DNA of 64,000 nucleotides from the NCBI GenBank assembly GCA_038231455.1, contig JBBRLI010000005.1, forward strand, positions 64,001 through 128,000. Direction: 5' to 3'. The stretch is from Vulcanimicrobiales bacterium. GTDB taxonomy: Bacteria > Vulcanimicrobiota > Vulcanimicrobiia > Vulcanimicrobiales > Vulcanimicrobiaceae. Numbering within the stretch: the stretch's first letter is position 1; each line of letters starts with the position of its first letter. Of the stretch, positions 13,149 through 15,666 are shown one piece after another. The position numbers and the translations under genes were made by a program. Under the pieces are notes generated by a model that was not told the origin of the DNA, searched no databases, and was given only the letters and a program-made list of their open reading frames with translations.

Positions 13149-13290
13149 GGTGCGAACTACTCCTGGGCAAGTAAGAAACCCGTTTCGTGGTCGCAGCTCG
13201 TGATAACCAAGGCGGCCTCCGGTTGATCGAGGAGAATCTTGGGCACGCGTGCATAGCCGGGTGAATTTTCAAATGTTGGGGAGATATTCG

Positions 13291-13593
13291 ATGAATGGCC
13301 TTCGGTCGGTAACTGCACTTGCGCTCGCGCTTTCGGTCTGCTTTTTGACTCCGCAGGGAGCGAACGCGAAAAATCCGTGCAAACAAAGTGGCGGGCGCCA
13401 GCTCAACATGCAGATCCATCAACTCGACGGACAACGCAAGCAGATCCAACGGCAATATCGAGGTCCGCAAAACGCGGTGGCTCGTCGCAATGCGCTAGCG
13501 CAAATCGATGCGCAGCGCGACGGACTCGAGGCGCAGAAACGCAACATGAAAGAGCGCGTAGAAGAGTGTAAAGAGGCGCACGGCCGGCGCTAA
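13291..13593 (+). CDS. Small exported helical hypothetical protein (100 aa)
   Basis: GGAG RBS before ATG 13291; signal peptide ending ANA; basic Gln-rich coiled-coil bracketed by two Cys. Confidence 0.6.
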   Translation: MNGLRSVTALALALSVCFLTPQGANAKNPCKQSGGRQLNMQIHQLDGQRKQIQRQYRGPQNAVARRNALAQIDAQRDGLEAQKRNMKERVEECKEAHGRR

Positions 13594-13674
13594 CGTGTGA
13601 TCCCGGTCCGCGTGTGGTGGAGAGCGGATCGGGTACACGCCCAGGGTGAACGTCAAATCCGGTCGCCCACGCTT

Positions 13675-14001
13675 ATGACCTTCGCCGATCCGATCGTCGT
13701 CGCGTTTACCGGTGATCTCGACGTTTCGAAGTACACGCAACTGCGCGATCGCTTGAACGAGGTGTGGGATGGCCGGTCGCCCATGATCGTCGATCTCCAT
13801 CAGGTCCGCTTGATGGACTCCACGTGTCTGAGCGAATTGTTATTGTTCCGACGACGCCTTCAACGCGCGGAAGCGGCCTTCGCAGCAATCGTCACCGACC
13901 CAAATATTTTACGTTTGCTCGAAATAACGGGCTTGAAGAAATCGCTGAACGTCGCAACCGACCTCGAGTCGGTTCTGCTGGCGTTTCGTCGCAGCGAGTA
14001 G
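13675..14001 (+). CDS. STAS domain anti-sigma factor antagonist
   Basis: GDLD…MIVDLHQVRLMDSTCL…RLLEITGL STAS pattern with the phosphorylatable Ser; start set at ATG 13675. Confidence 0.88.
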   Translation: MTFADPIVVAFTGDLDVSKYTQLRDRLNEVWDGRSPMIVDLHQVRLMDSTCLSELLLFRRRLQRAEAAFAAIVTDPNILRLLEITGLKKSLNVATDLESVLLAFRRSE

Positions 14002-14010
14002 CGACGGAGC

Positions 14011-14049
14011 AAAAAAGTCGACCGCCGATTGAACATCGACGGTCGACTT
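14011..14049 (-). terminator. Intrinsic terminator after tRNA-Ile (may also serve the convergent STAS gene)
   Basis: Minus strand AAGTCGACCGTCGAT-GTTCA-ATCGGCGGTCGACTT-TTTT. Confidence 0.8.
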
Positions 14050-14053
14050 GACT

Positions 14054-14130
14054 TGGTGGGCCATCCTGGGTTCGAACCAGGGACCTCATGCTTATCAAGC
14101 ATGCGCTCTAACCAACTGAGCTAATGGCCC
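14054..14130 (-). tRNA. tRNA-Ile(GAT)
   Basis: Reverse complement GGGCCATTAGCTCAGTTGGTTAGAGCGCATGCTTGATAAGCATGAGGTCCCTGGTTCGAACCCAGGATGGCCCACCA. Anticodon arm CATGC-TTGATAA-GCATG; CCA encoded. Confidence 0.97.
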
Positions 14131-14189: not shown

Positions 14190-14507
14190 CTAGATCAGCG
14201 CGATCCATTTCTTCAAGATCTCATCGTCGCGCTTGACCTGCTCCATCGAGAGGTCCCGCAGGGCGTTGAGTTCGCGGTCGAGTTCGGCCCGCTGCCGGAG
14301 CACGGTGTCGAACTGCATCCGCGCTTGAAGTGCCGCTGTTTCGTCCGCGCCCTCGGCGCTCGATTGGGCCGCGGTAACGGCAGCGGCAATCTTCTCAGCG
14401 AGTTCGTCGCTCGCGGCCGCCAACTCGACCTGCCTTCCGGTGTCACGGGACTTTGCAGCGGCGGACGGTCGGGCAGTCGCGGGTGCGCGGTTGTTGAGAA
14501 CGAGCAC
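14190..14507 (-). CDS. Small helical hypothetical protein B, paralog of 14512..14892
   Basis: Starts 4 nt after the upstream stop. Ala-rich N-terminus; C-terminal FDTVLRQRAELDRELNALRDLSMEQVKRDDEILKKWIALI. Confidence 0.8.
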   Translation of the reverse strand: MLVLNNRAPATARPSAAAKSRDTGRQVELAAASDELAEKIAAAVTAAQSSAEGADETAALQARMQFDTVLRQRAELDRELNALRDLSMEQVKRDDEILKKWIALI

Positions 14508-14511
14508 GCGA

Positions 14512-14892
14512 TTAACCGGTGATCGACTCGATGAATTTCTTGGTGATCTGGTCGTCGGCTTTGCGCTGCTGCATTGCGACTTCGCGTAAAACGTTACTTT
14601 GGCGCATCAGCTCGGATTTTTCCGCCGTCATCTGATCGAACGCATTCGATTGTGCCTGGAGTGCGAGTTGATAGTACGCATTTTGCGCGTTCATCCCATC
14701 TTGTGCGAGAAGGACGCCACTTTGCCAGGCGCCTTGCGCGCCATTTGCGGCATTGCCAATGGCAGCCGTACCGGTGGCGCCGGCGCCCGTAAAACCGCCG
14801 ACCGCCGCGGCACCCGCTGCGACCGCCGGATTGCCGGTGGTCAGGAATGTCTGCAGTCCCACGCCGAGCGCGGAATTGAGATTGAAGCCCAT
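14512..14892 (-). CDS. Small Gly/Ala-rich helical hypothetical protein A, paralog of 14190..14507
   Basis: Strong RBS TAGGAG. Gly/Ala-rich apolar N-terminus; C-terminal FDQMTAEKSELMRQSNVLREVAMQQRKADDQITKKFIESI. Confidence 0.85.
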   Translation of the reverse strand: MGFNLNSALGVGLQTFLTTGNPAVAAGAAAVGGFTGAGATGTAAIGNAANGAQGAWQSGVLLAQDGMNAQNAYYQLALQAQSNAFDQMTAEKSELMRQSNVLREVAMQQRKADDQITKKFIESITG

Positions 14893-14922
14893 GCTGATCT
14901 CCTAAAAGGACGAAGTTGCCAG

Positions 14923-14952
14923 TCGTTCACGCCGGGTGCGCTCGCGGCTAGT
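14923..14952 (-). promoter_or_regulatory. Putative alternative-sigma promoter ACTAG-N15-GCGTGAACGA (copy 1)
   Basis: Minus strand ACTAG CCGCGAGCGCACCCG GCGTGAACGA, 30 nt upstream of the protein A start; same boxes and spacing as copy 2. Confidence 0.65.
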
Positions 14953-14954
14953 CA

Positions 14955-15602
14955 TCAGATTATGAGGTTGCTTTGCGATCGATCATCATCGCCGGAAGCG
15001 AGAATTGACGCGCTATCGTCTTTCGGTGGTGCGGGTTTTTTATGCGCCGGAAGCGACGGACATGCTCCCGAAGCCGTGCCGAGCTGCGTGTAGAGGGACC
15101 GCAAAGCGTTGGTTTGGGCTGCGCTTTCCGGAAGTGCCGCGACCTGCACGTCGCGTGTCGCGGCGATCGCTCCGGGCGAGGAAGAAGTCGTGCTGATCCG
15201 CTGGTAATGGCGCAGGACCGAATCGGCGTAGCCGAGGGTCGTCCCGTCCCCCCAGGCCGTCTTGGTCCCGGCGGCTTTGGCGCTACCCGCGTTGTAACAC
15301 GAGAGCGCCGCATGCACGTCGCCCCCATTTTGCTTCACGAGGCCGGAGATGAGCCGCGCCGCGTACTCGGCGTTGGCTGCCGGGTCCATCGCCGCCGGGG
15401 TCTTGGCGAAAGGGTGCCAGCGGTCGTCGATTTGGAAGATTCCGTGGCCGTGGCCACCGTCGCCGACGATATTACGCCCGGAGTCGCTTTGTGGCCCGCC
15501 CGTTTCCTGAGCGGCAACCGCAGCGAGCAGACGTGGGTCAAGGTGGTGGCGCTGGGCGGCAGCGGCGATCTGCCTGCCGAACGCCACATGTAAACTACTC
15601 AC
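14955..15602 (-). CDS. Lytic transglycosylase (SLT domain) without signal peptide, with a low-complexity C-terminal tail
   Basis: AAQRHHLDPRLLAAVAAQETGG (catalytic Glu), GHGIFQID, DPAANAEYAARL, AALSCYNAG, YADSVL. Confidence 0.9.
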   Translation of the reverse strand: MSSLHVAFGRQIAAAAQRHHLDPRLLAAVAAQETGGPQSDSGRNIVGDGGHGHGIFQIDDRWHPFAKTPAAMDPAANAEYAARLISGLVKQNGGDVHAALSCYNAGSAKAAGTKTAWGDGTTLGYADSVLRHYQRISTTSSSPGAIAATRDVQVAALPESAAQTNALRSLYTQLGTASGACPSLPAHKKPAPPKDDSASILASGDDDRSQSNLII

Positions 15603-15607
15603 GGCCC

Positions 15608-15637
15608 TCGTTCACGCATCCTGGGCAAGCGCCTAGT
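15608..15637 (-). promoter_or_regulatory. Putative alternative-sigma promoter ACTAG-N15-GCGTGAACGA (copy 2)
   Basis: Minus strand ACTAG GCGCTTGCCCAGGAT GCGTGAACGA, ending 5 nt before the SLT GTG start. Confidence 0.65.
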
Positions 15638-15666
15638 TTGACACCGGAGGACGGCCATACTACAAT
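15638..15666 (+). promoter_or_regulatory. Sigma70 promoter of the yceD-rpmF-fab operon
   Basis: TTGACA-N17-TACAAT, 41 nt upstream of yceD. Confidence 0.85.

Follow-up and report, generated by a model that had tools for sequence, protein, structure and literature searches.

How does a cell make use of a peptidoglycan-cutting enzyme that has no recognisable export signal, and what do two small helical proteins encoded beside it contribute? Peptidoglycan glycosidases endanger the cell that produces them, and as a rule export signals and positioning partners keep them in check. The question is posed by a locus in a Vulcanimicrobiales bacterium of the phylum Eremiobacterota (Vulcanimicrobiota, WPS-2), contained in a 64,000-nucleotide (nt) stretch of contig JBBRLI010000005.1 (positions 64,001 to 128,000 of assembly GCA_038231455.1; hereafter the window) from a genome of about 3.71 Mb (G000). 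Three consecutive genes on one strand encode a putative glycosidase (the enzyme) and two small proteins, A and B. A first interpretation made from the letters of the window (the sequence-only reading) had proposed that this module is a satellite of a type III-like or new envelope-spanning machine, comprising rod or filament subunits and their muramidase.

Here, we focus on the range, composition and dependencies of the enzyme-A-B module, which is a chromosomal operon typical of the main family of Eremiobacteria. The best explanation, to which we give a probability of about one in three, is that A and B would form a coiled-coil scaffold by which the glycosidase is held and regulated, with no type III machine involved. 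Synteny, family range, conservation, natural fusions of the enzyme to A, the precedent of EscI and EtgA, and independence from type III secretion all count in its favour.

The operon, its enzyme and proteins A and B

The locus was compared with 80 related loci on one-genome-per-species contigs, all of them metagenome bins and most labelled Eremiobacterota, with a few carrying another or no taxon label. Of the 80, 78 encode the enzyme, 79 encode A and 66 encode B, and the gene order enzyme-A-B is constant. Among the loci listed, the module stands opposite yceD-rpmF-fabH-fabD, and the start of B overlaps or abuts the stop of A across the set. Of 24 loci scanned for it, 22 have tRNA-Ile(GAT) downstream in the same orientation, and in 18 the gap to B is about 100 nt at most. 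The trio read from a single contig is thus real and conserved in relatives with the same synteny, and the three same-strand genes placed between tRNA-Ile and the rpmF operon correspond to minus-strand open reading frames (ORFs; table 1). Because synteny is fixed across the 80 loci, a prophage or island remnant at the tRNA was rejected.

The range of the family was measured in 201 genomes spread evenly over the phylum and grouped in families f1, f2, f3 and others. The A-family profile was found in 127 genomes (f1, 108/113; f2, 3/3; f3, 15/15; other families, 0/69). An exhaustive profile search of 1.84 billion representative proteins returned 206 A-family proteins at E up to 0.001, the best 150 of which are 34–274 amino acids (aa) long, and ten longer members that were scanned contained no Pfam domain except for one enzyme-A fusion. 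In a 187 aa member, P0147, the final 35 or so residues of A follow an N-terminal coiled coil that is unrelated to A; it resembles a gene call across an insertion or rearrangement within an A gene.

The enzyme matches the Pfam SLT family (PF01464) with E 5.6e-9 and 36 bits, above the curated cut-off of 21.3. Its best sequence matches in the PDB are salmon lysozyme g (3mgw and 4g9s, E 1.4e-4), with which the ES/ET block of the catalytic Glu, the GDxGxGxG(L/I)xQ(V/I)DxRxH block and YNAG all align; both Asp positions of the goose-type block are aligned as well, which places the enzyme in the goose-type subgroup. These Asp residues have a catalytic role. Across 32 orthologues, 52 columns of the domain of approximately 140 residues are invariant, including E33 and the AAQETGGP block (32/32) and D48, D59 and D60. 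The catalytic domain spans residues 1–140 or thereabouts; a linker, variable and of low complexity, leads from it to an acidic tail at the C-terminus. Fold searches were made with an AlphaFold2 (AF2) model of a database protein in which enzyme and A are fused (P0067), and their matches covered the enzyme domain only: residues 7–147 align equally well to lytic transglycosylases and g-type lysozymes (VIA-align Z 12–13), while Foldseek ranks g-type lysozymes first.

From its sequence, the enzyme is a glycoside hydrolase family 23 (GH23) goose-lysozyme-like glycosidase without a recognisable export signal, and both hydrolase and transglycosylase chemistry would be compatible with it. The enzyme was first called a lytic transglycosylase; GH23 glycosidase is the better name, since goose-type lysozymes are the closest solved sequences. 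Set against goose-type lysozymes and family 1 lytic transglycosylases, this enzyme stands out as bacterial and signal-less, ends in an acidic tail of low complexity, and has a helical partner that is encoded beside it or joined to it in one protein. On inspection, all 78 listed orthologues start 5–25 residues before the invariant LLAAVAAQETGGP block, without a hydrophobic stretch. The maxima of Kyte-Doolittle hydropathy over 19 residues (KD19) are 0.57 for the enzyme, 1.15 for A and 0.87 for B; the usual threshold for a transmembrane helix is about 1.6. Inspection and hydropathy together bear out the earlier remark that none of the three proteins has a Sec signal peptide.

Proteins A and B share their C-terminal part, as had been noticed from the window: they are 47% identical over 45 C-terminal residues (BLASTP, E 4e-11), and the family profiles (A3 and A5) align over 50 columns with an hhalign probability of 99% and E 6.7e-18. 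The first 64 residues of A contain no charged residue; they are rich in Gly, Ala, Thr and Asn, with a conserved MGFNL start and a TGNP turn. The C-terminal part is a long helix ending in a near-invariant RKADDxITKKFIESIT block. In the AF2 monomer of A, short helices at 5–19 and 22–35 (predicted local distance difference test, pLDDT, 70–78) precede a long helix at 41–125 (pLDDT 51–61; mean of the model, 61). Protein B has a basic, Pro/Ala-rich and variable N-terminus of 20–90 residues, followed by the same helix as A (KRDDEILKKWIALI). On this shared helix, invariant polar residues (E, R, N, D, Q, K, DD, KK) are set on a heptad-like hydrophobic pattern, and we infer that it would provide a specific pairing or binding surface. 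Gene B starts 4 nt past the stop of gene A, and the two genes overlap in relatives. Judged from their sequences and gene order, A and B are paralogues whose translation is coupled, and their family is specific to this lineage.

That family appears to be undescribed, as first supposed. Pfam and NCBIfam gave no meaningful match for A or B, and PHROGs gave nothing below E 0.07. NCBIfam hits to TrbL for A (E 0.021) and KdpC for B (E 0.62) were rejected, both being far under the cut-offs, as were the low-complexity chance matches of a PDB profile search with family A, the best of which was cystathionine gamma-lyase (E 0.0014) over the Gly/Ala-rich part. A literature search, which was not exhaustive, found no publication on the enzyme-A-B module or on the second export cluster of Eremiobacterota described below.

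Type III export genes and the module

The type III interpretation began from the likeness of A and B to needle, rod and pilin subunits. Hrp pilins (HrpA, HrpE) and SctF, like A and B, are proteins of roughly 80–130 aa with a variable N-terminus and a conserved helical C-terminus, and they are the nearest named clusters in a protein language model (0.81–0.89). Protein A scores 0.89 with the HrpA_pilin cluster (188 of 256 features) and 0.85 with an HrpE-like cluster; B scores 0.89 with HrpE, 0.85 with SctF, 0.85 with an HrpA-like cluster and 0.81 with T3SS_needle_F, in a range of 0.79–0.89 that includes needle and OrgC clusters. The line for this model is 0.9, and a named family is probably wrong if few of the top matches agree. 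All scores fall under the line and so were treated as resemblance in kind, not membership; the likeness is a lead only, and it need not imply dependence on type III secretion.

Profile comparisons did not sustain it. Neither A nor B matches SctF (PF09392), SctI, HrpA (PF09589) or HrpE-like (PF28047) families in Pfam at E up to 1, and Pfam gave no match to FliE (PF02049), FlgB/C (Flg_bbr_C domain) or WXG100 (PF06013). Compared by hhalign with the FliE-like and FlgC-like proteins of the same genome, family A reaches probabilities of 0.25% and 0.07%, both below 1%. Unlike Hrp pilins and SctF, then, A and B have no hidden Markov model match; and whereas those subunits form a helix-turn-helix hairpin, A is predicted, in a low-confidence model, to have a short N-terminal hairpin and one long helix. 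A weak match of the enzyme to IagB also pointed towards type III secretion (IagB/EtgA equivalog NF011856, E 5e-5); at 22.9 bits it lies far from the cut-off of 208.

Export genes are present elsewhere in the genome, and to that extent the suspected export link stood; dependence on them did not. A full flagellar cluster lies on contig 9. A second, flagellum-derived but non-flagellar-looking export cluster is split over contigs 20 (L087:6026-15171) and 23 (L086:4449-9778). The contig 20 part encodes FlgC-like and FliE-like proteins, FliF with a FliG-like end, FliH, FliI and an SLT protein of its own, and then an aspartyl-protease-domain protein, an unknown protein, a weakly FlgE/F/G-like protein, a FliM-like protein, FliN and FliP. 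On contig 23, a pair of extracytoplasmic function (ECF) sigma and anti-sigma factors is followed by FliQ, FliR, FlhB and FlhA. No flagellin, hook or motor genes were seen in this second cluster. The one cultured species is described as a diderm that has neither flagella nor a flagellin gene and moves by type IV pili (PMC9758169). The aspartyl-protease-domain protein (PF13650, about 570–620 aa; L087:10178-12031 and L093:11347-13176) survives the export-gene deletion described below, and in f3 a PF13650 protein (L103:7233-8951) is encoded 1.6 kb from a distant A-like gene.

The second type of FlhA reaches an identity of 56% or more in f1 and f2 and 46–55% in f3, has relatives of 41–44% identity in other families, and is the only FHIPEP protein in many f1 genomes. 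This type is confined to the same families as A, which would suit an exported A-B pair. The co-occurrence of A with the second export cluster holds at the level of the clade, but the link breaks within it. Twelve of the 201 genomes are FHIPEP-negative, and A is present in 12/12 of these (12 of the 127 A-positive genomes), marginally so in G089 (E 6.5e-4). Among the FHIPEP-negative genomes tested, FliP was found in 0/10 (0/9 without the unpublished G128) and FlhB in 0/5. Co-occurrence with a type III export gate, which the sequence-only reading would have led one to expect, therefore fails in these genomes.

The export cluster is compact, and a single assembly gap could remove all of its markers, so a synteny comparison was made. 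The second-cluster genes of G093 form one operon of 13.7 kb (L093:3495-17159), and the 20 kb region around it was compared with four congeners, G061, G043, G081 and G194. G061 is collinear with it throughout. In G043, G081 and G194, both flanks, a 0.9 kb gene and the aspartyl protease gene are kept on one contig, while the segments from FlhA to FliQ, from FliP to the unknown gene and from SLT2 to FlgC are missing; the deletion is clean, and its structure does not differ between the three genomes. Each of them has kept the enzyme-A-B locus.

Within this export-less clade, the ratio of non-synonymous to synonymous substitution rates (dN/dS) is 0.026–0.041 for A (dS about 0.9–1.2), 0.10–0.20 for B (dS about 0.6) and 0.06–0.11 for the enzyme (dS about 0.4–0.9; pairs with G194, whose enzyme gene has an in-frame TAG, cover the first 56 codons only). 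A and B are under strong purifying selection where the export genes are deleted, so the genome comparisons indicate a module that is independent of type III secretion. The export cluster has its own SLT protein, which is 27% identical to the enzyme.

Other secretion systems were surveyed by marker proteins. VirB4 was not found in the window's genome, and VipB and WXG100 (PF06013) were each found in 0/5 genomes, the window's own being among the five for WXG100 and two export-less genomes being included. As far as these markers go, the module appears not to depend on type IV, VI or VII systems.

Fusions, enzyme loss and the proposed scaffold

The relationship between the enzyme and A is closest where they share a reading frame. 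Enzyme and A are fused in L018, L025 and L076 (3 of 78 enzyme ORFs) and in P0067, and the catalytic domain joins the N-terminus of A after a short linker. The low-complexity tail of the enzyme is absent from the L018 and L025 fusions, and in L026 the enzyme's own tail holds an A-like MGFSL...ANP segment. A word-indexed search for fused or longer forms of A returned none; it is a weak negative, as the fusions were found through the loci and the exhaustive search. Enzyme and A thus occur as one polypeptide in several lineages, which argues for a physical link.

A second observation points the other way. Of 113 f1 genomes, 102 have an orthologue of the enzyme (E up to 1e-30), whereas no f2 or f3 genome has one. 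A-B is the conserved core of the module, and the enzyme is a frequent, dispensable first gene. Since A-B is kept without it, the enzyme is best regarded as a client that joined A-B in the main family.

The known arrangement closest to this one is a peptidoglycan glycosidase with a dedicated helical partner, as in EscI and EtgA, to which the module is compared by analogy. In both, a GH23 enzyme is paired with a small helical protein; the C-terminal helix of EscI is reported to bind the back of EtgA and raise its activity (PMC10880428). Among the structural matches to the natural fusion of enzyme and A is an engineered EscI-EtgA fusion (8urn), at Foldseek rank 25 and with a VIA Z of 10.3 across the enzyme domain. 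In other traits the module departs from the type III setting. Unlike EtgA-EscI, it is independent of type III secretion as judged above; neither A nor B resembles rod or needle families in sequence or profile; and the enzyme comes first and the helix second, both in gene order and in the fusions. EtgA has a signal peptide, unlike the enzyme here. A further parallel is FlgJ, a flagellar rod cap fused to a GH73 muramidase without a Sec signal. Both FlgJ and the module unite, in one polypeptide or in a pair, a peptidoglycan glycosidase lacking a Sec signal and a helical part for assembly or scaffolding; the module differs in its GH23 enzyme, its domain order and its lack of dependence on the flagellar export gate.

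The scaffold proposed here would work as follows. A and B would pair through their shared near-invariant C-terminal helix into a coiled coil, and the uncharged, glycine-zipper-like N-terminal hairpin of A would place this scaffold at the membrane or envelope. The glycosidase would be tethered to it non-covalently through the acidic C-terminal tail, or covalently in the fusions, and tethering would confine the cutting of peptidoglycan to certain places and times. Blocks over residues 231–274 of the P0067 model made with AF2 have mean pLDDT values of 83–94, against 55–61 for the equivalent region of A alone. A predicted complex of A, B and the enzyme (score 0.01, mark 0.32) counts neither for nor against interaction.

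Several observations weigh against this explanation. A signal-less enzyme acting in the periplasm would need an export route, and none of the secretion markers surveyed supplies one. The N-terminus of A is not a classical transmembrane segment by its KD19 maximum (1.15), and the match to Gly-zipper_Omp is weak, at E 0.039 in one of eight A N-termini (Pfam, first 50–60 residues). The rise in pLDDT in P0067 is only compatible with docking. Eleven of the 113 f1 genomes are without an orthologue-level enzyme, and nine of the eleven have A, one of them marginally. In G169 and G130 (f1) and G055 (f2), yceD is followed directly by A-B, without the enzyme. In f3 a distant, single-copy A-like gene (97 aa in L103) lies opposite rpmE-prfA-prmC, without B or the enzyme. 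In export-less G194, the enzyme gene has its TAG after codon 56 (G194:C21:6012-6404, from L066:5204 onward). A-B persists without the enzyme, so A and B must act beyond controlling it. The main gap is the route of the enzyme across the inner membrane; its cut may serve growth, division or another envelope structure. In G194, A and B are intact, and the TAG in the enzyme gene could mark a pseudogene or a sequencing error.

The unusual traits of the module are the missing export signal, independence from recognised secretion machines, natural fusions, and a partner pair that outlives its enzyme. In an abundant soil phylum of which few members have been cultured, a whole lineage retains a GH23 enzyme that looks active, tied to proteins of an undescribed family. 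The path of the enzyme to its substrate and the product of A-B could reveal a new control principle for cell-wall cleavage or, alternatively, a new route of export or assembly in diderm Terrabacteria. The cultured member Vulcanimicrobium alpinus makes the module testable.

Among the alternatives to the scaffold, the one that survives best is a domesticated lysis-type or 'type 10' cassette, which we consider unlikely. Here A would be holin-like or signal-arrest-release (SAR)-like and let the muramidase through, B would be a soluble antiholin-like antagonist, and the cassette would serve autolysis or the release of vesicles or protein. Like phage holin-endolysin(-antiholin) and 'type 10' cassettes, the module sets a muramidase without a signal peptide beside a small protein with a weakly hydrophobic N-terminus, uncharged and Gly/Ala-rich in A, and a highly charged C-terminus. 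As in holin-antiholin pairs, a paralogue (B) is without the hydrophobic part and has only the C-terminal helix in common with A. The best PHROGs matches of the enzyme are to an endolysin, a lytic tail protein and an internal virion protein (E 5e-9 to 2e-7). A weak Rz-like spanin match (E 0.011) falls on the A part of P0067, and no markers of type III, IV, VI or VII systems offer another route. Of the features of a holin, A has the charged C-terminus and the endolysin-like neighbour; its hydrophobicity (KD19 1.15) stays under the transmembrane threshold, and no PHROG holin family matches A or B. Unlike phage cassettes, moreover, the module has a fixed position in the core genome, with synteny kept across the whole family and no phage genes nearby among the loci listed; A-B is retained where the enzyme is lost, and the fusions put the enzyme N-terminal to the hydrophobic region.

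Decidedly improbable is an account that casts A and B as self-assembling subunits, needle- or pilin-like, of an envelope structure or filament peculiar to Eremiobacteria and not yet recognised. It would have an export route of its own, need no type III, IV, VI or VII apparatus and recruit the muramidase in most lineages. If true, it would be a new way to move small helical proteins and a peptidoglycan glycosidase across the diderm inner membrane. Both A and B show needle- or pilin-like language-model features, and an invariant C-terminal helix is what a polymerisation interface would be expected to have. The strong ribosome-binding site (RBS) of A and the translational coupling of B also fit, as do the retention of A-B without the enzyme and without type III genes and the confinement of the family, which belongs to no known family, to one class (206 representatives among 1.84 billion proteins). 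Against it, none of the 80 related loci, as listed, has an export apparatus, secretin or ATPase linked to it, and the AF2 monomer is of low confidence (pLDDT 61). Taken more widely, A and B may still be structural subunits with a muramidase of their own, and a link to some other envelope-spanning machine may exist; the type III interpretation is not supported.

We give a similarly small probability to A and B being cytoplasmic proteins unrelated to peptidoglycan, for example in translation or growth control, with the glycosidase as a later passenger. Export signals are absent, A-B exists without the enzyme, and the gene neighbourhoods are suggestive: A-B of f1 and f2 is divergent from yceD-rpmF (L32), and in f3 the A-like gene (L103:5341-5634), with L103:4394-5269, is divergent from rpmE (L31)-prfA-prmC. 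A-like genes in f1/f2 and in f3 thus both neighbour a small ribosomal-protein operon, which may be coincidence. The in-frame enzyme-A fusions in several lineages and the enzyme orthologues in 102 of 113 f1 genomes speak against a mere passenger.

The sequence-only view, in which a type III (flagellum-derived) apparatus exports A and B as needle-, rod- or pilin-like subunits and the enzyme is their dedicated muramidase, is already contradicted by comparative genomics, among other things by the clean export-gene deletions in G043, G081 and G194 beside congeners G093 and G061 that keep the genes, and we regard it as very improbable.

Layout of the locus and neighbouring features

The features of the locus are collected in table 1. 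The divergent genes yceD, rpmF, fabH, fabD and fabG stand upstream of the enzyme gene.

Table 1. Features of the enzyme-A-B locus and its immediate surroundings (positions in the 64,000-nt window).
Feature	Position	Strand	Remarks
Bipartite motif, copy 1 (CTAGGCGC-N11-GCGTGAACGA)	15608..15636	-	ends 5 nt before GTG start of enzyme
Enzyme, putative GH23 peptidoglycan glycosidase (SLT domain), 215 aa, GTG start	14955..15602	-	Pfam SLT match
Bipartite motif, copy 2 (CTAGCCGC-N11-GCGTGAACGA)	14923..14951	-	between enzyme stop and RBS of A
Shine-Dalgarno sequence AGGAG of gene A	14899..14903	-	6 nt before ATG
Protein A, 126 aa	14512..14892	-	ORF; paralogue of B
Protein B, 105 aa, GTG start	14190..14507	-	ORF; paralogue of A
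tRNA-Ile(GAT)	14054..14130	-	same strand, directly downstream of B
Terminator-like hairpin and T run after tRNA-Ile	14015..14049	-	consensus scan only
Sigma-70-like promoter TTGACA-17-TACAAT of divergent yceD-rpmF-fab operon	15638..15666	+	11/12 consensus matches; context, outside module

The same bipartite motif had been seen before the enzyme and before the A-B pair, and this proved correct. The pattern CTAGsCGC-N11-GCGTGAACGA has two matches in the window and none in 100 shuffles, and a whole-genome pattern search placed both copies in the 3.71 Mb genome at the enzyme-A-B locus. No further regulon copies were found genome-wide, relaxed patterns giving scattered matches only. Among the upstream regions listed for relatives, the motif before A is kept only in the nearest one, L004. 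It is a lineage-specific feature and a putative promoter element. Its interpretation as an ECF or sigma-54 promoter was dropped, since the spacing is unlike the consensus sequences.

The strong RBS attributed to protein A is likewise present, and among the same upstream regions AAAGGAG-like sites precede A in relatives. The enzyme stop codon abuts this RBS in most of them, so the usual arrangement is a single operon. In the window, the enzyme-A-B operon is possibly read through to tRNA-Ile. Among the sequencing runs listed, no RNA run contains the stretch; one DNA run does and may be its source, and other runs contain small shares of it.

Downstream of tRNA-Ile, the window contains an ORF of 114 aa (13249-13593) that is Gln/Arg-rich and has a hydrophobic start, and an ORF of 134 aa (13597-14001) that looks STAS-like, by appearance only. 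Weak relatives of the latter (27–30% identity) recur after the tRNA in several related loci. Genes for tRNA-Ala(GGC) and tRNA-Ala(TGC) lie at 849-921 and 1523-1596 in the window, and are also found a few kb beyond tRNA-Ile in many related loci (L009, L011, L015 and others). The tRNA-Ile and tRNA-Ala genes in the window and in the related loci appear to be free-standing.

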